Positions 4,585 to 18,696 of a DNA stretch of 56,236 nucleotides are shown here, piece after piece. Location of the stretch: positions 1 to 56,236 of the forward strand of contig JAZQGJ010000069.1 in NCBI GenBank assembly GCA_045539995.1, given 5' to 3'. Positions within the stretch are counted from its first letter, which is position 1. Each line of letters begins with the position of its first letter. The notes below the pieces were generated by a model that was given only the letters and a program-made list of their open reading frames with translations, was not told the DNA's origin and searched no databases. Position numbers and translations under genes: made by a program. Source of the DNA: Eubacteriales bacterium (GTDB taxonomy: Bacteria; Bacillota; Clostridia; Oscillospirales; CAG-272).

Positions 4585-5978
4585 CTTTCTGCCTCCTCGT
4601 TTACAATCTTGTTCAATGCGTTGATGTACGCGCCAATAGACGCGCCTATAATGTCTGTGGAAATACCGTTACCCGAATAGAGCTTGCCCTCGTTGCGCAG
4701 CTTGATAAGCGCACTTCCTACTGCCTCTTTACCCTCGGTAACTGCCTGAATCTGAAAATCGTCAAGCTCAAAGTGATGTCCTACTATCTGCTCAAGAGCT
4801 CGGAAGGCGGCGTCTATAGGACCGTCTCCCATAGCTATTCCACTTAAAATTTCTCCGTCGCGGGAGAGCTTTATTTGCGCCGACGAGGAAATTATGTTGC
4901 CGTTGTTTATTACGTAGCTCTCCAGTTTATAGACGGGGGCTGCCTGCATAGCGACGCTCGCAACCACTGCGTCAAGGTCCTTTGCCGTGACCTTTTTCTT
5001 TGCGGCTACCTTTTTAAATTCCTCGTAAACGCGTACGTTGTCCTCGTCTGTGAGGTCATAGCCTAAGCGACGGACGGCGTCGCTCACCGCCTCTATCGTA
5101 TCGTTGATATCAAATACGGCATTGTCATTTTCTGCGTCAAAGGACTTCTTTCCCGAATGGGACGAGCTGTCGCTTCCGCATATCCAGCCTATCTGCTTGG
5201 TAATTCTGTGAAGCTCGTTGTCGTTGATATCCAATTTCACTCCGCAACGGTCACCGCAAAGGCTGAAAACAGATGAAAAAGATTCGGTTTCGGGAATGTC
5301 GGAGGCGCCAACCGCGCATTTCATTTCAGACGCGCCCGCGCGAATAGCCATAAATGCCGACGCGGTCGCCATTCCTATAGAATTTTTACAGAGTATTCCC
5401 ACGCTTACACGGGAAAGCTCGGGTATGTCTTTTTTCAAGTCGCCAAAGAATGAAGCAAATTCGTCGGGAAGCATTACGCCCTCGTCGTCACATAAGGTAA
5501 CGGTGCTTACTCCCGCCTCTATGGCTTCGCAGATAACACGGCGCAGATAATCCCTGTCGGCGCGCGTAGCGTCCTCAGCGAAAAATTCAACGTCGTCGCA
5601 TTTTGCCTTTGCCATAAGGAAAAGGCTGCGGCAAAGCTCAAGCATCTTCTCGGGCTTCTTATGGAATGAGTATTCCATCTGAACGGCAGAGACAGGCATT
5701 TTTACGGCAAGTCTCGCGCGCTTTGCGCCCGAAATAGCCGCCGCCGCTATATTCACACTCTCCTCTGTCACGCCTGTGTCAACGCACAGCGCGCTGTATT
5801 TAATAAACGCAGAGGCCGTTCTTATAAGCAAAGAATCAGTTTTTACGTTATCGATAGGCGGCATGTGGATAACGTCAACCTTCAAATGGTCAAGATGTCT
5901 CGCTATCTCTATCTTTTCTTTGAATGACAAAGCGCTGTGTCTTTGCAGCGTCATATCGGATATAACAATTTTTTTCAC
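4581..5978 (-). CDS. LeuA/HMGL-like protein with C-terminal LeuA allosteric/dimerisation domain; canonical catalytic residues missing
   Basis: 465 aa with a GTG start. It is colinear with 2-isopropylmalate/citramalate synthase. However, DTTLRDGEQ is replaced by SDMTLQRHS and the HxH(D) metal motif by ILCKNS. The C-terminal ~110 aa resemble the LeuA_dimer regulatory domain. Confidence 0.6.
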   Translation of the reverse strand: MKKIVISDMTLQRHSALSFKEKIEIARHLDHLKVDVIHMPPIDNVKTDSLLIRTASAFIKYSALCVDTGVTEESVNIAAAAISGAKRARLAVKMPVSAVQMEYSFHKKPEKMLELCRSLFLMAKAKCDDVEFFAEDATRADRDYLRRVICEAIEAGVSTVTLCDDEGVMLPDEFASFFGDLKKDIPELSRVSVGILCKNSIGMATASAFMAIRAGASEMKCAVGASDIPETESFSSVFSLCGDRCGVKLDINDNELHRITKQIGWICGSDSSSHSGKKSFDAENDNAVFDINDTIEAVSDAVRRLGYDLTDEDNVRVYEEFKKVAAKKKVTAKDLDAVVASVAMQAAPVYKLESYVINNGNIISSSAQIKLSRDGEILSGIAMGDGPIDAAFRALEQIVGHHFELDDFQIQAVTEGKEAVGSALIKLRNEGKLYSGNGISTDIIGASIGAYINALNKIVNEEAER

Positions 5979-6020: not shown

Positions 6021-6286
6021 ACAAAAAGCCCCTGAAGCCTTTTAGGGCTTCAGGGACGAAAAATACTTCCGCGGTACCACCCTGATTACCGTCAAAAAAC
6101 GGTCTCTTTAAGGCTCTGACAAGCCCTTTGCCACGGTAACGGGGCATACCGGAATTTCTTACTGAGGTTCGGAAATTCTGCTCGGGAACGAGACTTTACC
6201 TGCATTCGCACATCGGCTCGCACCAAACGCCGACTCTCTTGTGTACGTCAAAGCAGGAAATAATTCCTTCATAGCATTTAAAAACA
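6021..6286 (-). promoter_or_regulatory. T-box riboswitch leader, specifier read as CUC (Leu), with intrinsic terminator
   Basis: On the minus strand: K-turn GCU-AUGA-A-GGAA...UUCC-C-GA-GC, AG bulge AGAGAG, distal loop GGUGCGA. The T-box sequence AAUCAGGGUGGUACCGCG is the complement of 6069-6083. The terminator stem is CCCUGAAGCC/GGCUUCAGGG plus a U-run (6021-6057). The triplet CUC (6190-6192) followed by G lies immediately 5' of the K-turn-proximal helix. Confidence 0.85.
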
Positions 6287-6292
6287 TAAAGT

Positions 6293-6321
6293 ATTTTACC
6301 ACATAAAAAACGATTTGTCAA
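6293..6321 (-). promoter_or_regulatory. sigma-A promoter of the Leu T-box operon
   Basis: Minus strand reads TTGACA (6316-6321), a 17-nt spacer, then TAAAAT (6293-6298). Confidence 0.7.
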
Positions 6322-6401
6322 CAGTTTTCACTGATTTTTTTCGTTTTTCAGAGTTTTTTCAAATTTGCTCGGTTTGTTCTGAGATTTTGAAGTCCTTTCG
6401 G

Positions 6402-7463
6402 TCAAATCTGATAGGTCCAGCCGAACGTGTCTTCACGCTTGCCCCACTGAATTCCTGTAAGCACGTCATAAAGATGTCCCGTTACCTCGCCTATCTTGCC
6501 GCCGTTGATTTCAAAAACCTTATCCTTATACGCAAGCGTTCCTATAGGAGAAACGACAGCCGCCGTTCCGCAACCCCATGCCTCCTCAAGCTTGCCCTCG
6601 TCGAGTGCGCGCTCAAGCTCATCTATGCTTATTCTTCTCTCGCTTACCTTGTAGCCCTCGCTTTTGAGAAGCTCAATGCAGGACTTTCTCGTAATACCGG
6701 GAAGAATAGAGCCTACAAGAGCGGGAGTAACTATCTCGCCGTCTATTTTGAACATTACGTTCATTGCGCCGACTTCTTCTATATACTTGCGCTCAACGCC
6801 GTCAAGCCAAAGCACCTGAGCATATCCCTTTTCCTCTGCCTTCTGTCCCGCGCGTGTGCTTGCGGCATAGTTGCCTCCGCATTTAGCCTCGCCCGTACCG
6901 CCTCTTACGGCTCTTACGTCATCGGCCTCTATCATTATCTTAACGGGGTTAATGCCCGCCGCGTAGTAGCTTCCGACGGGAGACGTGATAATCACGTAGG
7001 TCGCGCGCTTTACCGAATGAACGCCCAAGCTCTCATCGTTACCGAACATAAAGGGACGGATATAAAGCGACGTTCCCTCTGCCGACGGTGTCCACTCCTG
7101 CTCGAATTCAATGAATTTGGTAAGAGTCTCGAGAGCCACGTCCTCAGGAATAGTAGGAAGGCAAAGGCGCTCTGCCGAACGGTTCATTCTTCTTATATTC
7201 TCGATAGGACGGAAAAGCTGAACCTTGCCGTCTGCCTTACGGTACGCCTTAAGTCCCTCAAATATCTCCGCGCCATAGTGCAGAGCTGTGCAGGCGGGGT
7301 GAATTTGCAGATTACCGAAGGGGACTATTCTCGCGTCGTGCCAGCCCTCGCCCTCTGTGTAATCCATAATAAACATATGGTCTGTAAATATCTTGCCGAA
7401 GCCCAATTTGGAAGGGTCGGGCTTTTCTGCAGGATTAGGATTTCTCGTTATTGAAATATTCAT
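6402..7463 (-). CDS. ilvE: branched-chain amino acid aminotransferase
   Basis: ~353 aa. Class IV aminotransferase pattern (FTDHMF, HYGAEIFEGLKAY, GEAKCGGNY, GITR). ATG 7463 has a GAAGGTGA RBS. The ORF track extends to GTG 7472. Confidence 0.9.
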   Translation of the reverse strand: MNISITRNPNPAEKPDPSKLGFGKIFTDHMFIMDYTEGEGWHDARIVPFGNLQIHPACTALHYGAEIFEGLKAYRKADGKVQLFRPIENIRRMNRSAERLCLPTIPEDVALETLTKFIEFEQEWTPSAEGTSLYIRPFMFGNDESLGVHSVKRATYVIITSPVGSYYAAGINPVKIMIEADDVRAVRGGTGEAKCGGNYAASTRAGQKAEEKGYAQVLWLDGVERKYIEEVGAMNVMFKIDGEIVTPALVGSILPGITRKSCIELLKSEGYKVSERRISIDELERALDEGKLEEAWGCGTAAVVSPIGTLAYKDKVFEINGGKIGEVTGHLYDVLTGIQWGKREDTFGWTYQI

Positions 7464-7501
7464 TTCTTTCACCTTCTTAATAATTAAAAAATTAAAGCTT
7501 A

Positions 7502-8041
7502 TTACTTATAATTTTTTCCTAAACGGATTGCGCCTAAGTTTACGTCAAGCATATCCGCGCGCTTTGCCGAAATTACCTTCTTAAGCGCAGCGAGGATTGT
7601 CTCCTCGTCGTCAAAGTCGCCCATATCAGCGAGCACCTTGCCCATAATTATCATATTTGCAAGGGTGGGCGTCTTGTTTTCGTCAGCCATCTTCGTGGCG
7701 GGTATGTAGTGAACCGTCACGTCCGTTCTCTTAACCTTGCGCTCGATAAGAGAGGAATCCACGTAAATCGTGCCGCCGGGCACAACGCTGTCCTCGTACT
7801 TGTCAAGCGAGGGGAGATTCATCGCTATAAGAACGTCGGGGTTAGATACTATAGGAGAGCCTACGGGCGTATCACTCAGAATTACGCTGCAGCTCGCCGT
7901 ACCACCTCTCATTTCGGGGCCGTAGGAGGGGAGCCAGCTTACGTTCTTTCCCAAATTCAAGCCTCCGTAAGCCAAAAACTTACCCGCGAACAAAATTCCC
8001 TGTCCGCCGAAGCCTGCGAATAAATATTCTGTCGTTTTCAT
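7502..8041 (-). CDS. 2-oxoacid:ferredoxin oxidoreductase gamma subunit (Kor/Vor type)
   Basis: 179 aa. GFGGQGI N-terminal motif and the POR/KOR/VOR gamma-domain pattern. It lies in a delta-alpha-beta-gamma gene string. Confidence 0.85.
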
Positions 8042-8055
8042 CTTCTTCTCTCCTC

Positions 8056-8799
8056 TCAGTTGTTTGCGCTTCTGTCCTTATATACTCCGAGAGGATAATA
8101 AGGAATCATTTTTTCGTCTATCCATTCAAGCGCCTTTTTAGGTGTCATACCCCAGTTGGTAGGACAGGAGGAAATAACCTCTACAAGAGAAAAGCCCTTT
8201 CCGTTCACCTGATTTTCAAACGCCTTTTTAATAGCCTTCTTCGCGTTCTTTACGTTCTTTACGTTGTTTACCGCAACGCGCTCAAGGTATTCGGGGCCGT
8301 CAAGCTGTGAAAGCATCTCGCATACCTTTATAGGAAAGCCGCAGTGATTTACGTCGCGTCCGTAGGGGGAGGTCTGCGTTACCTGTCCGGGAAGCGAGGT
8401 GGGCGCCATCTGTCCGCCCGTCATACCGTAAATCGCGTTATTTATAAAGATAACCGTGATATTCTCGTTTCTTGCGGCGCTGTGTACGGTCTCCGCCATA
8501 CCTATTGAAGCGAGGTCGCCGTCTCCCTGATATGTAAATACTATATTTTCGGGGTCAGAGCGCTTAACGCCTGTCGCTACTGCGGGCGCGCGTCCGTGTG
8601 CCGCCTCTATCATATCGCAGTTGAAATAATCATACGCCATAACCGAGCATCCTACAGGCGCTATACCTATCGTTCTGCCCTCAATTCCAAGCTCATCCAA
8701 AACCTCGGCTACAAGACGGTGAACAATACCGTGAGTACAACCGGGACAATAGTGCAGAGGCAAATCTGCCAATGCGTGAGGTTTATCAAATACTACCAT
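8056..8799 (-). CDS. 2-oxoacid:ferredoxin oxidoreductase beta subunit (TPP-binding)
   Basis: 247 aa. CPGCTHG cysteine motif and the GDGD...NN TPP-binding motif (YQGDGDLASIG...INNAIYGMTGGQ). Confidence 0.88.
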   Translation of the reverse strand: MVVFDKPHALADLPLHYCPGCTHGIVHRLVAEVLDELGIEGRTIGIAPVGCSVMAYDYFNCDMIEAAHGRAPAVATGVKRSDPENIVFTYQGDGDLASIGMAETVHSAARNENITVIFINNAIYGMTGGQMAPTSLPGQVTQTSPYGRDVNHCGFPIKVCEMLSQLDGPEYLERVAVNNVKNVKNAKKAIKKAFENQVNGKGFSLVEVISSCPTNWGMTPKKALEWIDEKMIPYYPLGVYKDRSANN

Positions 8800-8800
8800 C

Positions 8801-9874
8801 TTATTTACCTACCCTTTCTGCCGCTTTTTCAATAGACGCCAAAACCTGCTCGGGAGACGGAATCATACCGCCGCTTCTGTTGCAGAGTGTAACGGGCGCC
8901 TTGTCGCTTATAGCCAAACGAACGTCCTCTATCATCTGTCCCATAGAAAGCTCTACCGAGATAAATTCCTTTACCTTTTCTGCTGCCTTCGCAAAGGGCT
9001 TTTCGGGGAACGGCCAGAGAGTGATGGGACGGATAAGACCTACCTTAATTCCCTTTGCTCTCGCCTCGTTTATTGCGTTCTTGGATACACGAGCGGCGAT
9101 ACCGAATGCAGCTACGCAAATTTCAGCATCATCCATCATATATTCCTCATACATTACTTCGTTTTCTTTTATCGCCTCGTAACGCTCATAGCGCTCAAAG
9201 TTGGTACGCTCAAGCTCCTCGGGCTTCAAAAACAGAGAGTTTACTATGTTGTGCTTTCTCTCCATCTTCGTGCCAGTTACTGCCCAGGGCTTTTCGGGCG
9301 ACGGCGCAGGTGAGAAGTCGAGAGAAACAGGCTCCATCATCTGTCCCATAGTTCCGTCCGCCAAAATCATAGAGGTCATACGGTATTTGTCGGCAAGGTC
9401 AAAGCCGTGTACCGTAAGCTCTGCCATTTCCTGTACTGACGCGGGCGCTAAAACTATCATATGGAAGTCGCCGTGCGCGCCGCCCTTTGTCGCCTGAAAA
9501 TAGTCGGACTGCGAGGGCTGAATACCACCGAGACCGGGGCCGCCTCTCTGTACGTTTACGATAAGCGCGGGAAGGTCTGCTCCCGCAAGATATGAAATAC
9601 CCTCGCCCTTAAGAGAAATTCCGGGGCTTGAGGATGACGTCATAACTCTCTTTCCCGTAGCGGAAACTCCGTATACCATATTTATTGCCGCTATCTCGCT
9701 TTCAGCCTGAAGAAATACGCCGCCTATTTTGGGCATTCTCTTTGCCATATATGCCGCAATCTCCGTCTGGGGAGTGATAGGATATCCGAAATAGTGGCGG
9801 CAGCCTGCAATAATAGCCGCTTCGGCTATCGCTTCGTTACCCTTCATTAAAACCTTATCTGCCATTTCTTTCAC
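8801..9874 (-). CDS. 2-oxoacid:ferredoxin oxidoreductase alpha subunit
   Basis: 357 aa. N-terminal LMKGNEAIAEAAIIAGCRHYFGYPITPQTE is typical of KorA/VorB alpha subunits. Confidence 0.88.
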   Translation of the reverse strand: MKEMADKVLMKGNEAIAEAAIIAGCRHYFGYPITPQTEIAAYMAKRMPKIGGVFLQAESEIAAINMVYGVSATGKRVMTSSSSPGISLKGEGISYLAGADLPALIVNVQRGGPGLGGIQPSQSDYFQATKGGAHGDFHMIVLAPASVQEMAELTVHGFDLADKYRMTSMILADGTMGQMMEPVSLDFSPAPSPEKPWAVTGTKMERKHNIVNSLFLKPEELERTNFERYERYEAIKENEVMYEEYMMDDAEICVAAFGIAARVSKNAINEARAKGIKVGLIRPITLWPFPEKPFAKAAEKVKEFISVELSMGQMIEDVRLAISDKAPVTLCNRSGGMIPSPEQVLASIEKAAERVGK

Positions 9875-10077
9875 CTCTCTACCTTAATAATACAGTCGGG
9901 GCACATTGTCGCGCAGAACGCGCAGCCTATGCACGACTCCTCTTTCACCGCTTTTACAGGGTGGTGGCCTTTTTCGTTAATCTCGTCCTCTGCTATCGCA
10001 AGAACGCCCTTTGGACATACGTCTACGCAAAGACCGCAGCCCTTACATTTTTCGGTCTTGAATGTCAGCTTTGCCAT
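9871..10077 (-). CDS. 2-oxoacid:ferredoxin oxidoreductase delta subunit (2x[4Fe-4S] ferredoxin)
   Basis: 68 aa with two CxxCxxCxxxCP clusters (CKGCGLCVDVCP, CIGCAFCATMCP). It overlaps the alpha subunit start. Confidence 0.88.
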   Translation of the reverse strand: MAKLTFKTEKCKGCGLCVDVCPKGVLAIAEDEINEKGHHPVKAVKEESCIGCAFCATMCPDCIIKVER

Positions 10078-10090: not shown

Positions 10091-10747
10091 TTACATATGT
10101 TTCTGTAATATTATCTCGCGGAAGCTCTCCCCTGTTTCGAGGAGTCTGTCGGTCAATTTACGTACCGTCGTATATATCATAGGAATATTTGCTCTTTCTG
10201 CAAGAGCCTTTGACATAGCAATGCTTCCTATAATATCGTCGTCGGAGGTCTCTGCCCCCAAATTCGAGTTGTTGACGATTGCCGTAAACTTAAGTTTACA
10301 CGCATCCTCTATCTCACGCATAACCTCGAGAGCGCTTTCAACGTCTCTTGTCAGAGGTCGGAACGTATTTAAGACGTATAGCATTTCGTAATCGTTTTCC
10401 TCGTCTATCTTCGGCGCTATGCGTCCGAGCGCCAAGGCGCCTCGCTCGTCTCCTCCCACGTCAAGCACGCAATAAAGCTCTTTATCGTCGGTTATCGCGT
10501 ATATATCCTGAGGGAGCGCGGGAATATCTATATTCGTGTTCGCGTACGGCGAGCATATAAGACGTATTCCCTTTTCACAAAAAAGCTCTTCGCTGTCCTT
10601 GGTTCTGAAATAGGGATTTACTATATCTATATCGGCAACCGCAACGCGCTCGTGTCTCGTTTTCAGGTCAAGCGCGATATTTACGGCTATATTTGTTTTT
10701 CCGCTGCCGTAATGTCCCGACAGTATTGTAATTCTTTTATCCTTCAT
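10091..10747 (-). CDS. P-loop NTPase (SIMIBI MinD/ParA/CooC-like), function unknown
   Basis: 218 aa. Walker A GHYGSGKT near the N-terminus and a Walker-B-like LDVGGD. It sits between the acyl-CoA synthetase fusion and the oxidoreductase genes with 13-23 bp gaps. Confidence 0.6.
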   Translation of the reverse strand: MKDKRITILSGHYGSGKTNIAVNIALDLKTRHERVAVADIDIVNPYFRTKDSEELFCEKGIRLICSPYANTNIDIPALPQDIYAITDDKELYCVLDVGGDERGALALGRIAPKIDEENDYEMLYVLNTFRPLTRDVESALEVMREIEDACKLKFTAIVNNSNLGAETSDDDIIGSIAMSKALAERANIPMIYTTVRKLTDRLLETGESFREIILQKHM

Positions 10748-10770: not shown

Positions 10771-13056
10771 TTAAAGCAGATTTCTCTGAATTTTTCCGCT
10801 TGCAGTCTTAGGAAGCGAGTCCTTGAATACTACTATTCTCGGATATTTGTAGGGCGCCGTATGCTCTTTTACGTAATTCTGTATTTCACGCTTGAGCTCG
10901 TCTGTGCCCTCCGTGCCCTTTACTAAGACTATGCTTGCCTTTACTACCTGACCTCTCACCTCATCGGGCGCGGCGGAAACTCCGCATTCAAGCACGTAGG
11001 GCAATTCCATAATAACGCTTTCTATCTCGAACGGACCTATGCGATAGCCCGACGACTTAATGACGTCATCGACACGTCCGACGTAGTAATAGAAGCCGTC
11101 CTCGTCACGCCACGCAAGGTCGCCTGTGTGATAATATCCGTCGTAGCGTACCTCGTCCGTCTTTTCGGGGTCGCCGTAATACTCGGTAAACAGACCGCAG
11201 GGAGAGCCGTTTGATATATTAACAACGATTTCTCCCGACTCACCGACGGGAACAGGCTTTCCGTCTGAGGAAAGCAGCTCGACGTCATAAATAGGCGCAG
11301 GCTTACCCATAGAGCCTATCTTGTGAGGCGCGCCTGTGAGGTTGCCTATTATCATCGTGCTTTCCGACTGTCCGAAGCCCTCGAGTATCTGAAGCCCTGT
11401 AGCTTCCTCAAACTTGCGGTAAACCTCAGGATTGAGTGCCTCGCCTGCCGTCGTCATATGTTTAATAGATGAGAGGTCATATTTTGAAATGTCCTCTTTT
11501 ATTAACATTCTGAGCATCGTGGGGGGCGCGCAGAAGGTCGTTATCTGATATTTTGCGAACATCGGCAGAATGTCGGACGCGTTAAACCTGTCAAAGTCGT
11601 ATACGAAGGTCGCGCCCTCGCAGAGCCACTGTCCGTAGAACTTGCCCCAAAGAGCCTTCGCCCAGCCCGTGTCCGAAATTGTGAAGTGAAGTCCGTCAGG
11701 GTCTACGTTATGCCAATACTTCGCCGTATGGAAATGACCGAGCGCATATTTATAGTTGTGCGCCGCTATCTTAGGATAGCCCGTAGTGCCCGACGTGAAG
11801 AACATCAGCATAGGGTCGTCTCCTGCGGGGGTGTCGTCCCTTCGCTCGAAATGCGTGCTGAACATACTGCATTCCTCGTCGAAATTACGCCAGCCCTCTC
11901 TCTCTCCACCTACGATTATCTTGTGAAGCAGCTGAGGGCATTTCTTCGCCGCGATATCCACCTGCTCGGCAACCGCGCCCTTCGAGGTGCAAAGTATGGC
12001 GCTTACGCCCGCTTTATTAAAGCGATACTCGAAATCGTGGTCTAAGAGCTGATTCATCGCGGGAATCGCCACCGCGCCTATTCTGTGAAGCGCGAGCATA
12101 GCGAACCAGAACTGATAGTGTCTGCCAAGCACGAGCATTACCTTGTCTCCCTTTTTAATACCGAGAGAACGGAAATAGTTTGCCGCGCGGCAGGAATTTT
12201 TCTTTATATCGGAATATGTAAAGCGGCTCTCCGTCTTATCGTTGGCTATATGCAGAAGCGCCAGCTTGTTCGGACTTTTCTTCGCTATTTCGTCAACGAT
12301 ATCGTAAGCAAAATTGAACTTGTCTATATTCTTGAAGGTGATAGAGGTAGGCGTTCCCTGCTCGTTTTCCTCCGTGTCGATAAATTTGTTATATACTCTT
12401 TCCTCGGTGTCACGGCGAACGGGGGCAGCCACTTCTCTTTTCTGCGCCTTAAGCTCGGGTATTTCCGCGCCTGTGGGATTAAGAACGAAGGCGTAGAATG
12501 AGCAGTCCTCGCCGTTTACGGCTATCATACCGTGAGGCGTCGAGCTATCGTAATAGATACTGTCGCCAGGACCGAGAATTTCCTTATGCTCGCCTATCTG
12601 TATCTTGAGATGTCCCTCAATTACGATATCGCATTCCTGTCCCTCGTGAGTTGTAAGCTCTATATCCTTTACCTGAGCGTCCTCGCTGTATTTACTGCAC
12701 ACGTAGAGGGGCTCGGCAATTCTCTTCTTAAAAGAGGGAGCAAGGTTGAAATAGGTCATTCCGTGAGCCTGCTCTATTCTCTGTCCCATTCTCGCGCGAG
12801 TGAGCGTATAGGACTTAAGCGTCGGGCTCTTACCCTCTATAATATCGGTAACGTCAACGTTGAAGGCAAGCGCGCAGCGATATATAAAGGCGAAGTTGAG
12901 GTCTGAGCGTCCGTTTTCGCAGTCGCTGTACTCCTCTTCGGAAACGTTGGTTTTCAAAGCCATCTCTGCTACGGTATAGCCCTCTATTTCACGAAGCTCA
13001 CGTATTCGGTTAGCCATTTCTTGAATTTTATAATCAAGAGCTGTGATGTTTTGCAT
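10771..13056 (-). CDS. tripartite fusion: XRE-family HTH + cupin + AMP-forming (medium/short-chain) acyl-CoA synthetase, paralog 1
   Basis: 761 aa. Residues ~10-75 form an HTH_XRE domain (RIRELREIEGYTVAEMA...). Residues ~110-195 form a cupin (HEGQECDIVIEGHL...GDSIYYDSSTPHG). Residues ~230-761 carry FTSGTTGYPK, GFGQSE, YHTGD and GRVDDVIKSSGYRIGP. AAGGAG RBS precedes ATG 13056. Confidence 0.8.
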   Translation of the reverse strand: MQNITALDYKIQEMANRIRELREIEGYTVAEMALKTNVSEEEYSDCENGRSDLNFAFIYRCALAFNVDVTDIIEGKSPTLKSYTLTRARMGQRIEQAHGMTYFNLAPSFKKRIAEPLYVCSKYSEDAQVKDIELTTHEGQECDIVIEGHLKIQIGEHKEILGPGDSIYYDSSTPHGMIAVNGEDCSFYAFVLNPTGAEIPELKAQKREVAAPVRRDTEERVYNKFIDTEENEQGTPTSITFKNIDKFNFAYDIVDEIAKKSPNKLALLHIANDKTESRFTYSDIKKNSCRAANYFRSLGIKKGDKVMLVLGRHYQFWFAMLALHRIGAVAIPAMNQLLDHDFEYRFNKAGVSAILCTSKGAVAEQVDIAAKKCPQLLHKIIVGGEREGWRNFDEECSMFSTHFERRDDTPAGDDPMLMFFTSGTTGYPKIAAHNYKYALGHFHTAKYWHNVDPDGLHFTISDTGWAKALWGKFYGQWLCEGATFVYDFDRFNASDILPMFAKYQITTFCAPPTMLRMLIKEDISKYDLSSIKHMTTAGEALNPEVYRKFEEATGLQILEGFGQSESTMIIGNLTGAPHKIGSMGKPAPIYDVELLSSDGKPVPVGESGEIVVNISNGSPCGLFTEYYGDPEKTDEVRYDGYYHTGDLAWRDEDGFYYYVGRVDDVIKSSGYRIGPFEIESVIMELPYVLECGVSAAPDEVRGQVVKASIVLVKGTEGTDELKREIQNYVKEHTAPYKYPRIVVFKDSLPKTASGKIQRNLL

Positions 13057-13083
13057 TTTTTCTCCTTTTTTGGAACTTACGGG

Positions 13084-13353
13084 ACAAAAAAACTCGTCCC
13101 AAAGATAAATACTTTGAGACGAGTCCTAAAAAACAAAACCCGCGGTACCACTCAAATTGCGATTCAAAATCGCCGCTCAAGGTCAAACAACCCGTATGTA
13201 CTAACGCAACATTATCGGAGAGAGTCTACTTGATTTCTCTTTCTTTCTCTCAGCTCGGAAGCTACAAACATACGCAGCGTCTTAACGGCTTGCACCATCT
13301 ACCGTCTCTCTGTGAAAACACACGCGAATATCCTCTTCGTCAAAGCCTTTATA
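13084..13353 (-). promoter_or_regulatory. T-box riboswitch leader, specifier read as GUA (Val), with intrinsic terminator
   Basis: Minus strand: K-turn GCU-UUGA-C-GAAG...CUUC-C-GA-GC, AG bulge AGAGAG, distal loop GGUGCAA. The T-box AAUUUGAGUGGUACCGCG is the complement of 13141-13161. The terminator stem is 13092-13104/13112-13124 plus a U-run. GUA (13263-13265) followed by G lies immediately 5' of the K-turn-proximal helix. Confidence 0.85.
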
Positions 13354-13359
13354 TCGGTT

Positions 13360-13388
13360 ATTTTATCACGACTCAAAGCATTTGTCAA
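13360..13388 (-). promoter_or_regulatory. sigma-A promoter of the Val T-box operon
   Basis: Minus strand reads TTGACA (13383-13388), 17 nt, then TAAAAT (13360-13365). Confidence 0.7.
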
Positions 13389-13433
13389 TATATTTTTCAA
13401 AAAAATCGAATTTTTGTTGAATTTGTCGCAGCT

Positions 13434-15695
13434 TTATAGCTTATTTCTTTGAATTTTTCCGCTTATTGTCTTGGGAAGCTCTTGCCTGAACTCGACAATT
13501 CTCGGATATTTATAGGGAGCCGTATGCTCTTTTACGTAATTCTGTATCTCACGCTTGAGCTCGTCTGTGCCCTCCTTGCCCGGCACGAGAACGATACACG
13601 CCTTAACGACCTGTCCTCTCACCTCGTCGGGCGCCGCAGTAACACCGCATTCAAGCACGTAGGGCAATTCCATGATTACGCTTTCTATCTCGAACGGGCC
13701 TATACGGTAGCCCGACGACTTAATAACGTCATCGGCGCGTCCGACGTACCAGAAATATCCGTCCTCATCGCGCCAAGCTGTATCGCCCGTATGATAATAG
13801 CCGTCGTGCCATACGTCCTTCGTTTTCTCTTCCTCTTTGTAATAGCCATTGAAGAGACCGCAGGGAATCTTATCGCTTGTCTTGATAACGATTTCGCCCG
13901 TCTGACCTGTGGGAACGGGATTTCCGTCAGAATCAAACAGAGAGATGTCGTAGAGGGGTACTGCCTTACCCATAGAGCCTACCTTACATTTGCTGCCCAT
14001 AAGGTTAGCTATTGACAGAGTAGTTTCGGTCTGTCCGAAGCCCTCCATTATGGAAAGTCCCGTCGCCAGCTCGAACTGACGGTGAACCTCAGGGTTGAGC
14101 GCCTCGCCTGCCGTCGTCATATGCTTGATTGAAGACAGGTCGTATTTCGAGATGTCCTCTTTTATTAACATTCTGAGCATTGTGGGGGGCGCGCAGAAGG
14201 TGGTAATATTATATTTTGCGAACATCGGCAAGATTTCCGACGCGTTGAATTTATCGAAGTCGTAGGTAAATACGCCGCTCTCACAAAGCCACTGTCCGTA
14301 GAGCTTGCCCCAGAGAGCCTTGCCCCAGCCTGTCTCGGAAATCGTGAAGTGGAGTCCGTTTTCATAGACGCCGTGCCAATATTTCGCGGTTATATAGTGA
14401 CCTAAGGGATATTTATGGCTATGCACGGCTATCTTCGGATAGCCTGTAGTACCCGACGTGAAGAACATAAGCAGAGGGTCGTTTCCGCAGGCGGTATTTT
14501 CGTCGCGGTAGAAATGCGCGCTATAGAGCGAATACTCATCGTTGAAGCTATGCCAGCCCTCTCTCTCTGCGCCGACGATTATCTTTGTAGCGAGAGGACA
14601 GCTCTTTTCGGCAAGCTCGACCTGATGCGCGACGTCTCCGTCAGAGGTGCACACGATGGCGCTGACCTCAGCCGCCTTGAAGCGATAATCGAAGTCGTGC
14701 TCTTGTAAGAGGTTTGTCGCGGGAATAGCGACAGCTCCCAGCTTATGTAGGGCAAGGATAGCGAACCAGAACTGATAATGGCGCTTAAGCACGAGCATTA
14801 CCTTGTCGCCCTTCTTAATACCGAGAGCGCGGAAATAGTTCGCCGTCATATTCGACGCGCGCTTCATATCACGGAAGGTAAAGCGGTTTTCTCTGCCGTT
14901 TTTGTCTATGTGAAGCATAGCGAGCTTGTTAGGCTCCTTTTTCGCTATCTCGTCGACTATATCGAAGGCAAAGTTGAACTTGTCCTCGTTTTCAAAATCT
15001 ATCTTTGTAAGGGTGCCGTTTTCGTCCTCCTCGGTATGAATGAAGCGGCTGCTTACAAGCTCCTTCTTTTCTACTCGCGAAGCGAGAGTCGCTCTCGTCG
15101 TTTGCTCGGGGATAGTCTCGCCGGGCAAAACGACGGCGAGGAAAAGGCACTCTCTGCCATCGACGGCAATCATACCGTGAGGGGTTGCGCTATTGTAATA
15201 AATGCTGTCGCCCTCGCTGAGATATTCGACGTGGTCGCCTATCTGTACCTTGAGTCGTCCACTCATGACGAAGTCGAATTCCTGTCCCGAATGAGTCGCG
15301 AGCGCTATAGGCTTATCCTGCAATTTTTCGTCATACTCGTATTTTACCCAATAGGGCTCGGAGAGCTTCTTGCGGAAAAGAGGTGCTAAGTTCTTTATCT
15401 CTATTCCGTCCTCCTTCGCAGTCTCCTGTCCGTTTCCTTTTCTTGTAATAGTGTAAGAGGAAAGCGATGCGCTTTGTCCTTCAAGCAGGTCCGTAATGTC
15501 GATGCCGAAAACCAACGCGCACTTGTGAAGAAATGAGAAGGGATAATCCTTGGAGCCCGCCTCGTATTCAAGGTATTGCTCTACGCTCACTTCGGTCTTT
15601 CGTGCCATTTCTTCTATTGAAATACCGTCTATCTCGCGCATTTCCTTAATTCGCAGAGCGACCTCTAAAAGCTTGTTTTCAGATGAACCTGACAT
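13434..15695 (-). CDS. tripartite fusion: XRE-family HTH + cupin + AMP-forming acyl-CoA synthetase, paralog 2
   Basis: 753 aa from ATG 15695, with a GGAGGTG RBS at 15701-15707. The domain order matches 10771-13056. It contains long identical peptide blocks (ITTFCAPPTMLRMLIKEDISKYDLSSIKHMTTAGEALNPEV). The ORF-track start at 15770 runs into a non-coding tandem repeat and is rejected. Confidence 0.8.
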   Translation of the reverse strand: MSGSSENKLLEVALRIKEMREIDGISIEEMARKTEVSVEQYLEYEAGSKDYPFSFLHKCALVFGIDITDLLEGQSASLSSYTITRKGNGQETAKEDGIEIKNLAPLFRKKLSEPYWVKYEYDEKLQDKPIALATHSGQEFDFVMSGRLKVQIGDHVEYLSEGDSIYYNSATPHGMIAVDGRECLFLAVVLPGETIPEQTTRATLASRVEKKELVSSRFIHTEEDENGTLTKIDFENEDKFNFAFDIVDEIAKKEPNKLAMLHIDKNGRENRFTFRDMKRASNMTANYFRALGIKKGDKVMLVLKRHYQFWFAILALHKLGAVAIPATNLLQEHDFDYRFKAAEVSAIVCTSDGDVAHQVELAEKSCPLATKIIVGAEREGWHSFNDEYSLYSAHFYRDENTACGNDPLLMFFTSGTTGYPKIAVHSHKYPLGHYITAKYWHGVYENGLHFTISETGWGKALWGKLYGQWLCESGVFTYDFDKFNASEILPMFAKYNITTFCAPPTMLRMLIKEDISKYDLSSIKHMTTAGEALNPEVHRQFELATGLSIMEGFGQTETTLSIANLMGSKCKVGSMGKAVPLYDISLFDSDGNPVPTGQTGEIVIKTSDKIPCGLFNGYYKEEEKTKDVWHDGYYHTGDTAWRDEDGYFWYVGRADDVIKSSGYRIGPFEIESVIMELPYVLECGVTAAPDEVRGQVVKACIVLVPGKEGTDELKREIQNYVKEHTAPYKYPRIVEFRQELPKTISGKIQRNKL

Positions 15696-15707: not shown

Positions 15708-15927
15708 ATAAAAATTGAAAATTGAAAGTTGAAAATTGAAAATTATTGAATAAATCCTCTCGGAGTTCAATCAAATTAAATTAAAATAAAAATTGAAAAT
15801 TGAAAATTGAAAATTATTGAATAAATCCTCTCAGAGTTCAATCAAATTAAATTAAAATAAAAATTGAAAATTGAAAATTTAAAATTATTGAAAAAATCCT
15901 TTCGGAGTTCAATCAAACTAAATTAAA
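15708..15927. repeat. tandem repeat, three units (78+71+71 bp), each containing an internal AAAATTG heptad run
   Basis: Units start at 15708, 15786 and 15857, each beginning ATAAAAATTGAAAATTG...AATCCTCTCGGAGTTCAATCAAATTAAATTAAA. The first unit carries one extra heptad. The array lies in the 5' UTR between the Ile T-box terminator and the RBS. Confidence 0.9.
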
Positions 15928-15928
15928 A

Positions 15929-16232
15929 TAAAAAACGCCTCAAAGAAAAATCTTCTTTGAGACGGGTGAAATCTATACACTCGCGGTACCACTCAAATTG
16001 CGTCGATGACGCCACTTAGGGAGACTAACAACTCCTGCGCACTAACGCTGCGCTCCTCGCGAACTCCTACTGCACTTTTCAGAATTCGGGCTCAAAAGCG
16101 ATGGGTAATGACCTACTGCGTTATGGCTTGCACCTTCCGCCACTTCTCTGCGCCGCATAAAAAGGGTTACCGTCTTTATCATAGCCTTTATGAAATTACC
16201 TGCGGGGAAATAAGAACTATTTCCACATTTAT
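15929..16232 (-). promoter_or_regulatory. T-box riboswitch leader, specifier read as AUC (Ile), with intrinsic terminator
   Basis: Minus strand: K-turn GCU-AUGA-U-AAAG...CUUU-U-GA-GC, AG bulge AGAGAAG, distal loop GGUGCAA. The T-box AAUUUGAGUGGUACCGCG is the complement of 15982-16002. The terminator stem is 15936-15945/15955-15964 plus a U-run. AUC (16100-16102) followed by G lies immediately 5' of the K-turn-proximal helix. Confidence 0.85.
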
Positions 16233-16238: not shown

Positions 16239-16267
16239 AGTATATCACAGTATTTTTGATTTGTCAA
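16239..16267 (-). promoter_or_regulatory. sigma-A promoter of the Ile T-box transcript
   Basis: Minus strand reads TTGACA (16262-16267), 17 nt, then TATACT (16239-16244). Confidence 0.65.
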
Positions 16268-16299
16268 GAGTTTTTTTATATTTTTTTTGCAAAATTCAA

Positions 16300-16371
16300 A
16301 AAGTATAAATAAAAAAGAAGAAACACCGCCAAACGAAACCGTTTGTTCAATCAAACCTTAATAAAAGCTCG
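16300..16371 (-). terminator. putative terminator after metA (long-loop hairpin)
   Basis: The 10-bp arms GAAGAAACAC (16308-16317) and GTGTTTCTTC (16361-16370) are followed by a U-run on the minus strand. The loop holds a nested CAAACG/CGTTTG hairpin. Confidence 0.45.
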
Positions 16372-16468: not shown

Positions 16469-17392
16469 TCATTTTCCGACACCGTCCTTTATATCGTAGG
16501 GTGTTGTCTGATATACGTAATAATTGAGCCAGTTCGAATATAAGAGGTTTGCGTGAGAGCGCCAGCTTACAATCGGGGGCTTCGTATCGTCATTGTCGGG
16601 GTAATAGTTTTCGGGGGGAAGTATCGGAAGGTTCAGATTTTTATCTCGCAGATACTCCTTTTCAAGAGTACGGGGGTCATATTCGGGGTGTCCTGTGATA
16701 AACACTCTGCGATTTTCCTCGTCCTCCACAGCGAAAACGCCCGCCTTTTCAGAGGAAGCTAAAATTTTAAGGCTCGGAATTTTTTCTATATCCTCTCGCA
16801 AGACCTCCGTATGTCTCGAATGAGGAATCATAAACACGTCGTCAAAGCCTCGAAACAGTCTCGACTCGCCATGCTCGACGGTGTGAGGAAATACTCCGAA
16901 AAGCTTCTCATTCAGCAAATACTTATCCACGCCGTAGAAATAATGAAGTCCTGCCTGAGCGCCCCAGCAAACGAAGAACGTGCTGAAGACGTGAGTCTTA
17001 CTCCACTCCATAATTCTGCAAAGCTCTTCCCAATATTCTACCTCTTCAAACTCCATTTTTTCAACGGGCGCGCCCGTTATGATCAGTCCGTCGAAATATT
17101 CCTTTTCTATGCTTTCAAAGTCAACGTAGAAGTTCAGAAGATGCTCTTGCGAGACGTTCTTCGACTTATGCGTTTTCGTATGCAGCAGAGTAAGCTCTAT
17201 CTGAAGCGGCGTGTTTCCCAAAAGCCTCGAAAACTGCGTCTCTGTGTCTATCTTTGTCGGCATAAGGTTGAGAAGCGCTATTTTAAGAGGTCGTATGTCC
17301 TGCGTTATAGCGCGCAGCTCTGTCATAACGAAGATGTTCTCCGACTCCAGAACCTTTACGGCAGGCAGGTCATTCGGTATTTTTATCGGCAT
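16469..17392 (-). CDS. metA: homoserine O-acyltransferase (MetA family)
   Basis: 307 aa. MPIKIP...[11 protein letters not shown]-terminus and the FFVCWGAQA region containing the active-site cysteine are typical of MetA. Confidence 0.9.
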
Positions 17393-17412
17393 AAATTTAC
17401 TCTCTTTCTAAA

Positions 17413-18696
17413 TCAGTTAAGCGTCGAAAGCGCAGCGTCAAGGTCGGCTATAAGGTCCTCTGCCGCCTCCAGACCGCAGGAATAACGGATAAGGTCGGGG
17501 GTAATTCCCGCAGCCTCCAGCTCCTTGTCATTCATCTGTCTGTGCGTTGCGTTCGCGGGGTGCAGGCAGCAGCTTCTCGCGTCTGCCACGTGCGTTTCTA
17601 TAGCGGCTATTTTCAGCTCCTTCATTACGCGCTCAGCAGCGGCGCGTCCGCCCTCAACGGCGAAGCTGATAACTCCGCAGCAGCCGTTCGGCATATACTT
17701 ATTCGCTATATCGTAGTATTTATCCCCCTCAAGCATAGGGTATCTTACCCATTTTATCTTGGGGTGCTTTGATAAGAACTTAGCTACCGCCAAGGCATTT
17801 TCAAAGTGGCGCTTCATTCTCACGTGAAGGCTCTCAAGTCCTAAATTGAGTATAAAGGCGCTCTGAGGCGAGGGAGACGAGCCGAAGTCACGCATAAGCT
17901 GAGCCGTCGCCTTGGTAATAAACGCGCCCTCAAGTCCGAACTTTTCGGCGTAAACTATTCCGTGATAGCTATCGTCGGGGGTGGTAAGACCTGGGAAACG
18001 CTCGGCATTAGCAAGCCAGTCGAATTTTCCCGAATCAACGATACAGCCACCGACACAAGCGCCGTGTCCGTCCATATATTTCGTAGTCGAATGAGTAACT
18101 ATATCCGCGCCGAATTCAAAGGGACGGCAGAATATAGGGGTTGCAAAGGTATTATCAATTATTAAGGGCACTCCGTGAGCGTGAGCCGCGGAAGCAAAGG
18201 TCTCGATGTCTAATACGTCGAGCGACGGATTGGATATAGTCTCTCCGAATACCGCCTTTGTGTTGGGACGGAACGCCTTTTCAAGCTCTTCCTTTGTAGC
18301 CGTCGGGGAAACGAAGGTGAAGTCTATGCCCATCTTCTTCATCGTGACTGCAAAAAGATTGTAGGTTCCTCCGTAAATAGCAGACGATGCTATCACGTGG
18401 TCTCCGCAATTAGCTATATTGAATACTGCGTAGAAGTTGGCCGCCTGTCCCGACGAGGTCAGCATAGCGGCGCAGCCGCCCTCAAGCAAGGCTATTTTAG
18501 CTGCGACGGTGTCGCAGGTGGGGTTCTGCAGACGGGAATAAAAATATCCGCTCGCCTCCAAATCAAAGAGCTTTCCCATATCCTCGCTAGTTTCATATCT
18601 GAAGGTCGTGCTTTGAATTATCGGTATCTGTCTCGGCTCTCCGTTGCCTGCGTGATAACCGCCCTGTACGCATACTGTATCTCTTAACATATCCAT
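17413..18696 (-). CDS. metY: O-acetylhomoserine sulfhydrylase (Cys/Met-metabolism PLP enzyme)
   Basis: 427 aa. The HSTTKYMDGHG PLP-lysine motif and overall MetY/CysD pattern. It lies 20 bp upstream of metA. Confidence 0.88.
   Translation of the reverse strand: MDMLRDTVCVQGGYHAGNGEPRQIPIIQSTTFRYETSEDMGKLFDLEASGYFYSRLQNPTCDTVAAKIALLEGGCAAMLTSSGQAANFYAVFNIANCGDHVIASSAIYGGTYNLFAVTMKKMGIDFTFVSPTATKEELEKAFRPNTKAVFGETISNPSLDVLDIETFASAAHAHGVPLIIDNTFATPIFCRPFEFGADIVTHSTTKYMDGHGACVGGCIVDSGKFDWLANAERFPGLTTPDDSYHGIVYAEKFGLEGAFITKATAQLMRDFGSSPSPQSAFILNLGLESLHVRMKRHFENALAVAKFLSKHPKIKWVRYPMLEGDKYYDIANKYMPNGCCGVISFAVEGGRAAAERVMKELKIAAIETHVADARSCCLHPANATHRQMNDKELEAAGITPDLIRYSCGLEAAEDLIADLDAALSTLN

Follow-up and report, generated by a model that had tools for sequence, protein, structure and literature searches.

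What does a head that looks like a transcriptional repressor do on a metabolic enzyme? Two tandem genes in a contig from a Eubacteriales bacterium (GenBank assembly GCA_045539995.1, JAZQGJ010000069.1; the 56,236-nucleotide (nt) stretch that was analysed is hereafter ‘the window’) raise this question, since each joins a helix-turn-helix (HTH) domain and a cupin domain, together the ‘head’, to an acyl-CoA synthetase (ACS) in a single chain. The two proteins are 66% identical, and their DNA is 69% identical. The start of ACS2 is taken as the ATG behind a GGAGG sequence, which gives a protein of 753 amino acids (aa); a longer open reading frame (ORF) reaches a TTG at 15770.

10771–13056, minus strand: ACS1, HTH-cupin-acyl-CoA synthetase of 761 aa, ORF uninterrupted; Pfam domains are HTH (~12829–13020), cupin (~12490–12660), AMP-binding (~11218–12294) and AMP-binding_C (~10792–11028), with a variable linker at aa 193–218
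13434–15695, minus strand: ACS2, HTH-cupin-acyl-CoA synthetase of 753 aa, ORF uninterrupted; Pfam domains are HTH (~15477–15662), cupin (~15132–15299), AMP-binding (~13839–14954) and AMP-binding_C (~13455–13691)

A sequence-only reading of this DNA had proposed an XRE-type HTH, a cupin and an AMP-forming ligase in one chain, and this architecture is confirmed, with every Pfam domain scoring above its gathering threshold in ACS1 and ACS2, respectively: AMP-binding at 215 and 211 bits (cutoff 29.9), AMP-binding_C at 74.8 and 74.6 bits (cutoff 24.5), HTH_19 at 36.3 and 36.5 bits (cutoff 30.2), HTH_3 at 30.1 and 25.8 bits (cutoff 23) and Cupin_2 at 44.1 and 41.6 bits (cutoff 27.2). The motifs quoted there, FTSGTTGYPK and GR(V/A)DDVIKSSGYRIGP, are found in both translations, as is PKT(A/I)SGKIQRN, which carries the C-terminal catalytic lysine in SGKI; the core motifs of the ANL superfamily, (T/S)SGTTGxPK, the hinge GRxDD(V/I)IK and the SGKI lysine, are thus intact in both proteins. 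The same reading had allowed for an assembly artefact, with a frameshift or stop hidden between cupin and ligase. There is none: independent assemblies yield 79 ACS1 and 56 ACS2 orthologs in which the four-domain frame runs unbroken, and this rules out the explanation. It had also allowed for a common, already characterised family. Common it is, as every one of the 80 related genomes kept and each of the best 120 protein clusters shows the HTH-cupin-ligase architecture, but no characterised member was found, and a literature search of incomplete coverage returned nothing on such a fusion or on XRE-cupin proteins associated with acyl-CoA synthetases.

Both ligase parts are classed by homology as medium/short-chain (MACS-type) acyl-CoA synthetases of the ANL superfamily. 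The ligase part aligns end to end with Methanosarcina acetivorans Macs (PDB 3etc; E = 8e-182, residues 8–521 of the 524-aa query), with adenylation motifs and catalytic lysine in common. Only four conserved differences separate the paralogs within the ligase, A466G, M469L, M568L and G571A, all of them within two segments, GW(A/G)K and GFGQxE, that we take to line the acyl pocket of Acs. Gly466 and Ala571 of ACS2 are the residues found in 3etc, a Macs that prefers 2-methylbutyrate. The best NCBIfam model is MbcS (NF047394), at 431.9 and 443.7 bits, below its equivalog cutoff of 850, which by score makes ACS1 and ACS2 relatives of MbcS and not equivalogs. Neither Macs nor Staphylococcus aureus MbcS has an HTH-cupin head, and MbcS supplies fatty-acid synthesis (PMC10026030), whereas the role that we propose here is in amino-acid synthesis.

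This role is suggested by what surrounds the two genes. They had been described as lying behind a T-box, and each in fact has its own promoter and its own T-box; ACS1 heads an operon with the genes of a 2-oxoisovalerate:ferredoxin oxidoreductase (VOR, VorDBAC) and the aminotransferase IlvE.

16239–16267, minus strand: sigma-A promoter of the Ile T-box/ACS2 transcript, TTGACA-17-TATACT with TG, 11/12 matches
15955–16191, minus strand: T-box with specifier AUC (Ile); RF00230, 80.4 bits, E = 1.9e-16, below the Rfam gathering score of 93
15936–15964, minus strand: terminator hairpin of the Ile T-box
13360–13388, minus strand: sigma-A promoter of the Val T-box/ACS1 operon, TTGACA-17-TAAAAT with TG, kept in 66 aligned ACS1 promoters
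13112–13352, minus strand: T-box with specifier GUA (Val); RF00230, 93.4 bits (gathering score 93)
~13093–13123, minus strand: terminator stem of the Val T-box followed by a T-run, read from the sequence
10091–10747, minus strand: P-loop NTPase (ParA/Mrp-like), encoded between ACS1 and VOR; marginal Pfam scores for ParA and CbiA
7502–10077, minus strand: VOR genes; Pfam Fer4, POR_N/PFOR_II, TPP_enzyme_C and POR
9871–10077, minus strand: VorD
8801–9874, minus strand: VorB; NCBIfam VorB, 547.6 bits, cutoff 399
8056–8799, minus strand: VOR TPP beta subunit
7502–8041, minus strand: VOR gamma subunit
6402–7472, minus strand: IlvE, branched-chain amino acid aminotransferase, which closes the Val T-box operon; NCBIfam PRK13357, 480.9 bits, cutoff 307
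6049–6281, minus strand: third T-box, in the Leu leader, with specifier CUC; RF00230, 123.3 bits

The Fer4, TPP_enzyme_C and POR subunits adjoin VorB and complete a four-subunit set of 2-oxoacid:ferredoxin oxidoreductase (OFOR) type. The order ACS2, ACS1, P-loop NTPase, VorDBAC, IlvE is repeated in most of the 80 genomes, and the NTPase gene keeps its position in nearly all related loci. The neighbours of the two ligase genes are VOR, IlvE, a LeuA-like gene and met genes.

All three T-boxes contain GUGGUACCGCG, with the UGGN bulge sequence, and have terminator hairpins with T-runs; a purine follows each of the specifiers GUA, AUC and CUC. Across orthologous loci, with specifier codons called by a heuristic of our own, ACS1 leaders read GUA in 56 of 74 cases and GUU or GUC in three more (five unreadable), ACS2 leaders read AUC in 33 of 54 (14 unreadable), and leaders of LeuA-like operons read CUC or CUG in 19 of 27. 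The layout of the ACS2 promoter is kept across 39 aligned ACS2 promoters.

It has been recognised for a long time that gut and rumen bacteria convert isobutyrate and 2-methylbutyrate to valine and isoleucine, and Allison and co-workers reportedly found that rumen bacteria carboxylate isobutyrate, 2-methylbutyrate and isovalerate reductively to make valine, isoleucine and leucine. The ACS, VOR and IlvE set seen here fits the enzymology proposed for that pathway. Both ligases would catalyse its first step, from branched-chain fatty acids (BCFAs) of the gut or rumen towards branched-chain amino acids (BCAAs): the acid, ATP and CoA would yield an acyl-CoA, VorDBAC would carboxylate this reductively to a 2-oxoacid, and IlvE would transaminate the product. 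ACS1, behind the Val T-box and co-transcribed with VOR and IlvE, would activate isobutyrate for valine, and ACS2, behind the Ile T-box, 2-methylbutyrate for isoleucine. Because a matching T-box precedes each gene, transcription would proceed only with the cognate tRNA uncharged. We consider this salvage role and its T-box logic probable; the substrates are read only from the T-box specifiers and the two pocket residues, and the direction of the VOR reaction is presumed. T-box-controlled BCAA genes of Firmicutes likewise have an amino-acid-specific leader before genes that supply that amino acid, but those genes belong to the ilv/leu de novo pathway, whereas the T-boxes here would control salvage from fatty acids. 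We found no report tying T-boxes or the fused ligase to BCFA salvage, again in a search of incomplete coverage. The locus provides candidate genes, together with amino-acid-specific riboswitch evidence, for the route from isobutyrate and 2-methylbutyrate to valine and isoleucine in a large, mostly uncultured group of Clostridia, a route relevant to isoacid supplements for ruminants and to the exchange of BCFAs and BCAAs in the gut.

The HTH-cupin head is no recent add-on to these enzymes. Standalone HTH-cupin proteins of approximately 184 aa occur in several phyla, where their genes precede that of an orthologous ligase by approximately 20 nt. An ACS gene lies directly downstream in 56 of 67 metagenomic loci and in all five standalone genes that we looked up, and its product is approximately 50% identical to the ligase here. 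In the case of the standalone protein P0344, residues 10–192 of ACS1 align with P0344 itself and residues 245–758 with the adjoining ACS. Such pairs are found in Bacillota, Bacteroidota and Ignavibacteriota, where the annotation of the small proteins reads ‘XRE family / cupin transcriptional regulators’. Very probably, an ancestral gene pair has here become one fused gene. Through fused and standalone proteins alike, H137, Q140, E141, D165 and H175 are invariant at an overall identity of 33–44%. Between orthologs the head is conserved at 0.72–0.77, against 0.80 for the ligase, and 11 of the 15 paralog-specific positions lie within aa 54–117, that is, in the head.

We propose, at a probability of about 0.5, that the head senses a ligand, in a form specific to each paralog, and gates its own ligase; this mode of action is suggested by the conservation pattern and gene arrangement described here. 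The head would be a small-molecule sensor, probably metal-assisted, that tunes an ATP- and CoA-consuming ligase to the level of substrate or product, and it would not be a classical operator-binding repressor. That it acts on the enzyme and not on DNA we regard as close to an even proposition. Tentatively, the proposal may extend to the standalone proteins of approximately 184 aa, which together with the fused forms could be a ligand- or metal-binding subunit gating the ligase and perhaps no transcription factors at all. Acs is controlled by lysine acetylation; if our reading is correct, the head would represent a parallel, widespread and undescribed restraint on an ATP- and CoA-consuming enzyme, duplicated in this lineage into valine- and isoleucine-specific versions, each with a matching T-box. 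Conserved adjacency and fusion link one enzyme family to a very large family that carries no label beyond ‘transcriptional regulators’, which suggests either a new kind of acyl-CoA synthetase control or many misannotations.

To date, the XRE-cupin proteins that have been characterised repress metabolic genes locally, in their own neighbourhood (PMC7901475), and the gene adjacency seen here fits such a function equally well. Like the head, Escherichia coli PuuR, Pseudomonas aeruginosa ErfA, PsdR and PauR, and the protein of PDB 1y9q combine an N-terminal five-helix XRE domain with a C-terminal Cupin_2 domain; like the standalone proteins, they are approximately 185 aa long and encoded next to a metabolic gene. 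1y9q, annotated as a transcriptional regulator, is also the best Foldseek match to the head, end to end at E = 2e-13. The head might then be a functional XRE-cupin repressor that stays attached to its enzyme: it would occupy operators, at its own promoter or at others, until the cupin binds substrate or product, and so, as with BirA or PutA, initiation would be controlled in addition to T-box attenuation. Besides the fold match and the HTH_19, HTH_3 and Cupin_2 scores above gathering thresholds, this account can draw on purifying selection on the head and its divergence between the paralogs, as operator or ligand specificity would need, and on the conservation of a structural Arg22–Glu47 pair and several basic residues.

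The sequence-only reading had likewise regarded the head as a canonical DNA-binding repressor architecture; this is the part of it that we doubt, from the charge of the HTH and the lack of palindromes in the promoters. The HTH has a net charge of −5.3 over the 79 ACS1 and −5.4 over the 56 ACS2 sequences and is strongly acidic in all 135; its helix2-turn-helix3 segment carries −4 to −6. In PuuR, a proven XRE-cupin repressor and the one experimentally proven control in this comparison, the corresponding values are +1 and 0. Positions 40–42, in the ‘recognition helix’ where bases are usually contacted, are mostly Glu or Asp in the head. The standalone relatives are acidic too, and helix2-turn-helix3 of P0344 is without any Lys or Arg. 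R17, R19, R22, K35 and R/K60 are conserved basic residues of the HTH and could be DNA-backbone contacts. Y43 and Y46, considered as a conserved surface, were dropped, as both align with buried hydrophobic positions of the HTH_3 consensus.

Promoters of the three leader classes in related genomes tell a similar story. An alignment on the −35 element of 66 promoters of ACS1, 39 of ACS2 and 22 of the Leu operon, scored by per-position information, shows no conserved palindrome or dyad motif such as would be expected of XRE-cupin factors with palindromic operators; the only features conserved in these 127 promoters are the −35 element, a TRTG-extended −10 element and an A/T tract. The T-run/A-run upstream of the −35 element resembles an UP element and was rejected as an operator because all three classes carry it, even that of the Leu operon, where there is no HTH-ligase. 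A palindrome search upstream of standalone HTH-cupin genes, covering 71 metagenomic loci and five taxa, gave no shared motif either, and many of the genes lack an intergenic region of their own upstream. The partner is always the same ligase, either fused or downstream by approximately 20 nt, which sets the family apart from the characterised XRE-cupin factors, and one-to-one fusion to an abundant metabolic enzyme would be unusual for a repressor. We consider a tethered repressor the less likely reading, though a serious rival, and DNA binding by the head doubtful.

Enzymes with a regulatory function are in themselves an established concept. The trigger enzymes BirA, PutA and NadR embody it with unrelated domain families, and P. 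aeruginosa FadD1 has been reported as a non-canonical regulator (PMC12754631). BirA and FadD1 are adenylate-forming, as are the ligases here. DNA binding has been demonstrated for the trigger enzymes and for FadD1, whereas the sequence features of the head argue against it.

A fold related to the head also occurs in enzymes. Foldseek matches it to HppE, Psf4, HEPD and MPnS, with E-values between 1e-13 and 1e-9, and these proteins similarly join an HTH-fold domain, one not known to bind DNA, to a cupin of the 2-His-1-Glu type; they thereby lend our preferred reading a structural precedent. Taken with the five invariant residues of the cupin, the matches could also mean that the head is itself a metal-dependent enzyme that catalyses a reaction of the acid or the acyl-CoA, so that the whole protein would be bifunctional. 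The resemblance is distant, with TM-scores of just 0.3–0.5 and identities of 17–20%, and the His/Glu/His positions (H137, E141 and H175) are shared by the repressor PuuR, for which reason we dropped this triad as a marker of enzyme versus regulator. HppE, Psf4, HEPD and MPnS act in phosphonate pathways with oxygen- or peroxide-dependent chemistry, which we would not expect in strictly anaerobic gut Clostridia; no phosphonate-pathway genes occur near ACS1 and ACS2, where the neighbours are those named above. Conversion of a branched acid to its CoA ester needs no further chemical step. A catalytic head is accordingly very unlikely.

A further possibility is a head that serves only oligomerisation or solubility, with no part in sensing or regulation. 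XRE domains and cupin domains both commonly dimerise, and an AlphaFold2 (AF2) model of the full-length protein (pTM 0.62, with pLDDT below 50 in the linker at residues 203–212) shows, at that quality, no confident contact between head and ligase. Against such a structural relic stand the conservation of the putative metal- or ligand-binding residues across phyla, the concentration of conserved paralog-specific substitutions in the head, and the escape of the head from a homogenisation that has affected the ligase part. We regard it as highly improbable and retain the sensor that gates its ligase as the preferred reading.

This homogenisation is visible as patches of near-identity between ACS1 and ACS2, from which ongoing gene conversion or strong constraint had been suggested. 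Gene conversion is supported, as a recurrent process confined to the ligase part. For the head, a nearest-neighbour comparison in 55 genomes gave no evidence of it: the paralog in the same genome was the nearest neighbour in 0 of 55. The within-genome excess of identical codons is approximately 0.10 in the head and approximately 0.22 in the C-terminal domain, and this gap, with the run lengths below, shows that codon usage common to the two genes cannot by itself account for the patches. In this tandem pair, sensor and pocket residues are kept distinct as the rest of the gene is homogenised, a pattern that marks where specificity resides. Two tracts stand out in the window.

10850–10918, minus strand: conversion tract in ACS1 (counterpart ACS2 13513–13581, aa 713–736), adjacent segments of 33 and 35 nt with one mismatch each
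11489–11538, minus strand: conversion tract in ACS1 (counterpart ACS2 14152–14201, aa 507–523), 50 nt with one mismatch

Within the first tract, the single mismatch in 55 nt claimed between 10858–10912 and 13521–13575 is reproduced; for the second, the claimed near-identity holds, at one mismatch in 50 nt, but its coordinates were off by 3 nt and are corrected in the list. Identity within the genome is 0.95 for the first tract and 0.92 for the second, against maxima of 0.82 and 0.85, respectively, to the paralogs of other genomes. ACS1 and ACS2 of the window share a run of as much as 57 nt with no more than one mismatch, which is beyond chance: the maximum is 38 nt (median 24) against the paralogs of 54 other genomes and 44 nt against ACS1 orthologs. 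In 76% of genomes, near-identity runs are longer than the 95th percentile of between-genome values.

ACS1 and ACS2, tandem paralogs that each join an HTH–cupin head to an AMP-forming acyl-CoA synthetase (hereafter the ligase part), lie on the minus strand with their T-box leaders, as does a third leader:

13434-15695, minus strand, ACS2, 753 aa, uninterrupted ORF with an ATG start behind GGAGG
10771-13056, minus strand, ACS1, 761 aa, uninterrupted ORF
15955-16191, minus strand, T-box leader of ACS2, Ile specifier AUC (Rfam, E = 1.9e-16, below the gathering score)
13112-13352, minus strand, T-box leader of ACS1, Val specifier GUA (Rfam)
6049-6281, minus strand, T-box leader, Leu specifier CUC (Rfam)

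Domain searches bear out the architecture proposed by the sequence-only reading. In both unbroken frames, Pfam places HTH_19/HTH_3 at about aa 13–76, Cupin_2 at about 133–189, AMP-binding at about 250–615 and AMP-binding_C at about 670–755, all above the gathering score; the ligase motifs quoted in that reading occur in both proteins, and each gene is preceded on its own strand by a T-box leader, as it had stated. ACS1 and ACS2 are 66% identical as proteins and 69% as genes, with a variable head–ligase linker of about 25 residues (aa 193–218) that has low confidence in the predicted model.

The four-domain layout recurs in 120 of the 120 best protein clusters (77–99% identity), which are named solely ‘AMP-binding protein’ or ‘cupin domain-containing protein’. 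Across species-representative genomes, a scan gave at least 574 relatives, not all of which need be fused because some scan patterns fall in the ligase part; all 80 loci kept from it match residues 1–761 (ACS1 numbering). These loci come from gut MAGs (animal and human) of Acutalibacteraceae, Oscillospiraceae, Ruminococcus and other Clostridia, and the relatives in all our comparisons are MAGs or metagenome contigs. The fused architecture is neither an assembly artefact nor rare. The recurring gene order, ACS2–ACS1–P-loop NTPase–VorD–VorB–VorA–VorC–IlvE, often followed by a LeuA-like gene, a TIM-barrel–ACS gene and an amidohydrolase gene, indicates that the tandem pair is old, and ACS1 orthologs are separable from ACS2 orthologs in 55 genomes. 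The possibility of a common, already characterised family, raised earlier, holds for frequency and fails for characterisation: as far as we searched, the literature contains no description of the HTH–cupin–ligase architecture.

Standalone relatives point to the origin of the head. A profile-free search with residues 1–245 found 2,732 relatives, and the closest non-fused ones are HTH–cupin proteins of about 184 aa that align over the whole module at 35–43% identity. In all five look-ups (records labelled Bacillota, Clostridiales, Petroclostridium-like, Ignavibacteriales and Prolixibacteraceae), the standalone gene lies 17–22 nt upstream of an AMP-binding gene of about 550 aa on the same strand, and all other neighbours differ among the five. 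Among 78 metagenomic loci fetched with one standalone HTH–cupin protein, 67 were evaluable; directly downstream, 56 of these have an ACS with about 50% identity to the ligase domain of the window proteins, and 4 more have one within about 0.5 kb. In one split pair, the small protein matches ACS1 residues 10–192 (38%) and its ACS neighbour, from its own residue 27, matches residues 245–758 (51%). Such pairs, matching head and ligase separately, indicate that ACS1 and ACS2 most probably arose by fusion of an ancient two-gene module, which would connect a large ‘regulator’ family with a single family of enzymes.

The head appears to be functional, judging from its conservation. Ortholog conservation is 0.72 in the HTH, 0.77 in the cupin and 0.80 in the ligase N-domain, and R17, R22, E47, G49, D52, G75, H137, Q140, E141, G164, D165 and H175 are invariant in fused and standalone proteins that share only 33–44% overall identity. 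Eleven of the 15 paralog-specific fixed positions fall in aa 54–117, which covers the final HTH helices and the strands running up to the barrel; this concentration suggests that each paralog has a partner or ligand of its own.

The domain names, like the sequence-only reading, point to a DNA-binding repressor, and several results argue against this. The mean net charge of the HTH (aa 14–76) is −5.3 in 79 ACS1 and −5.4 in 56 ACS2 proteins. In the columns aligned with these, E. coli PuuR, a proven XRE–cupin repressor and the only proven control, has +1 and 0. The start of helix 3, the usual base-contact positions, is mostly Glu or Asp (S39-E-E-E42); an acidic HTH is common to the standalone relatives, one of which has no Lys or Arg in the helix2–turn–helix3 segment. 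Promoters aligned at −35 (66 ACS1, 39 ACS2 and 22 Leu-operon leaders) conserve solely the −35, a −10 extended by TRTG and, upstream, an A/T tract that all three classes have, and no dyad was found in them. The head has the domain composition of XRE–cupin regulators but lacks two further features of theirs that we tested, a DNA-suited HTH surface (judged against one charge control) and, at its promoter, a palindromic operator.

An AF2 model of the head shows five helices and a cupin barrel (pLDDT 83.7). Its Foldseek matches are 1y9q, annotated as an HTH_3 regulator, and then the enzymes HppE, Psf4, HEPD and MPnS, which like the head fold combine an HTH-like domain with a cupin (2-His-1-Glu), which shows that DNA binding is not obligatory for a fold of these two domains. 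We rejected the His/Glu/His triad as a mark of enzyme versus regulator, since PuuR has it too. We favour, at a probability of roughly 45–50%, a head that acts as a paralog-specific sensor on its own ligase, although the full-length model (pTM 0.62) does not predict head-on-ligase docking. A trigger enzyme with the head as its DNA-binding part is rather unlikely given the HTH charge and the lack of a promoter dyad, even though the head exceeds HTH Pfam thresholds, keeps some basic residues and, in its adjacency to a metabolic gene, fits the known XRE–cupin proteins, which repress neighbouring metabolic genes locally (PMC7901475). We consider a catalytic cupin very improbable and a purely structural head slightly more so.

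Of the two near-identical DNA patches reported earlier, one is exact (10858–10912 versus 13521–13575, 1 mismatch in 55); the other was placed 3 nt out of register, and in true register, 11489–11538 versus 14152–14201, has 1 mismatch in 50. In 20-codon windows over aa 661–740, same-genome paralogs are 0.81–0.89 identical, compared with 0.70–0.79 for other-genome paralogs and orthologs, and 56%–65% of 55 genomes exceed the 95th percentile of between-genome values; the excess is weaker at aa 281–320 and 501–540. The head shows no same-genome excess (0.47–0.59 within and between genomes, with orthologs clearly closer). Identical residues use identical codons at 0.51 in the head, rising to 0.66 in the C-terminal domain, within genomes and at 0.41–0.44 between genomes, so shared codon usage accounts for only about half of the excess. 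In nearest-neighbour terms, ACS1 is closest to the ACS2 of its own genome in 9/55 genomes for the C-terminal domain and 0/55 for the head. Allowing one mismatch at most, the window's two genes share a run of up to 57 nt, whereas no foreign paralog gives more than 38 nt; over all genomes, this longest run has a median of 44 nt within a genome and 26 nt between genomes, with 76% of genomes above the between-genome 95th percentile. Together, these measures indicate recurrent short-tract conversion between the tandem copies, as had been suspected, confined to the ligase part: it is tolerated in generic catalytic parts and kept out of the head.

Only four paralog-specific fixed differences persist in the whole ligase despite conversion: A466G, M469L, M568L and G571A. 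They fall within two segments, GW(A/G)K and GFGQxE, which in Acs line the acyl pocket. Over its full length, the ligase part aligns with PDB 3etc (E = 8e-182), the Methanosarcina acetivorans Macs, which is known to favour 2-methylbutyrate (see also PMC10455477 and PMC11300592). Gly466 and Ala571 are common to ACS2 and 3etc, and ACS1 has the bulkier Ala466. The top NCBIfam model is S. aureus methylbutyryl-CoA synthetase MbcS, with a score below the equivalog cutoff; the ligase part is a MACS-type ANL ligase and not an MbcS equivalog.

Downstream of ACS1 lie a four-subunit 2-oxoacid:ferredoxin oxidoreductase (VOR), with an alpha subunit above the VorB model's threshold, and a branched-chain aminotransferase passing IlvE models. 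In the Stem I specifier loop of the Rfam alignments, each specifier is followed by a purine, with a 4-bp helix below the loop. A home-made heuristic rule, applied to all related loci, reads GUA ahead of ACS1 in 56/74 leaders (GUU/GUC in 3 more), AUC ahead of ACS2 in 33/54 (14 unreadable) and CUC/CUG ahead of the LeuA-like operon in 19/27. Ligase homology, downstream genes, specifiers and pocket residues together support two putative parallel salvage routes. ACS1 would convert isobutyrate to isobutyryl-CoA, VOR in the carboxylating direction would yield 2-oxoisovalerate and IlvE valine; 2-methylbutyrate would become isoleucine by way of ACS2, each route being switched on once the matching tRNA is uncharged. 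This reductive-carboxylation route has been described biochemically in rumen bacteria, and we found no paper linking it to T-boxes or to a fused HTH–cupin–ligase. The loci supply candidate genes for a pathway long known from gut and rumen, together with riboswitch evidence for it.

A P-loop NTPase gene between ACS1 and VorD (10091–10747, minus strand, 218 aa) is kept in almost every related locus; its ParA/Mrp (NUBPL-type) and CbiA matches are marginal, it has no NCBIfam family, and it may encode an Fe–S or assembly factor for VOR. Genes for metA (homoserine O-acetyltransferase) and O-acetylhomoserine sulfhydrylase (16469–18696, minus strand) lie directly upstream of the ACS cluster. Several relatives share this placement, the loci noted being L051, L062, L065 and L074; in L051, both genes sit in the gap between the P-loop gene and VorD. 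The Leu T-box operon (20–5978, minus strand) has four genes:

minus strand, divergent LeuA-like gene, 465 aa, below isopropylmalate synthase cutoffs
minus strand, TIM barrel–ligase fusion, 839 aa, xylose-isomerase-like AP_endonuc_2 with a different acyl-CoA ligase
minus strand, Amidohydro_2 protein
minus strand, PLP enzyme

In the related locus L081, TIM barrel, ligase and amidohydrolase are each encoded by a gene of their own, side by side and next to a split HTH–cupin and ACS pair; the 839-aa protein adds another enzyme fusion to this lineage, possibly as part of a leucine-related branch.

Each of the three T-box leaders has its own strong promoter, TTGACA-17-TGnTAnAAT. Directly upstream of the −35, all three classes carry a T-run and then an A-run (for example, TTTTTTTGAAAAA) at 16239–16300, 13360–13420 and 6293–6360, and at the same positions in related loci L001–L080; the tract resembles an UP element and also has weak dyad symmetry. 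A perfect inverted repeat, GGAAATA-N5-TATTTCC (16206–16224, minus strand), sits between the −10 and Stem I of the Ile T-box, in an extra stretch of about 35 nt absent from aligned ACS2 leaders of other genomes, and could be a small hairpin or candidate binding site. The leader stretch that separates the ACS2 start codon from the Ile T-box terminator (15718–15934, minus strand) contains 3.1 copies (95% matches) of a 71-nt unit, with internal 7-nt CAATTTT repeats and a weak promoter-like TTGAAC-17-AATAAT per copy; the unit is absent from the rest of the window, and the repeat widens the gap from T-box to ACS2 start to about 296 nt, compared with about 90 nt in related genomes. A lysine riboswitch (44085–44251, plus strand, 94.9 bits) precedes a 576-aa plus-strand ORF.
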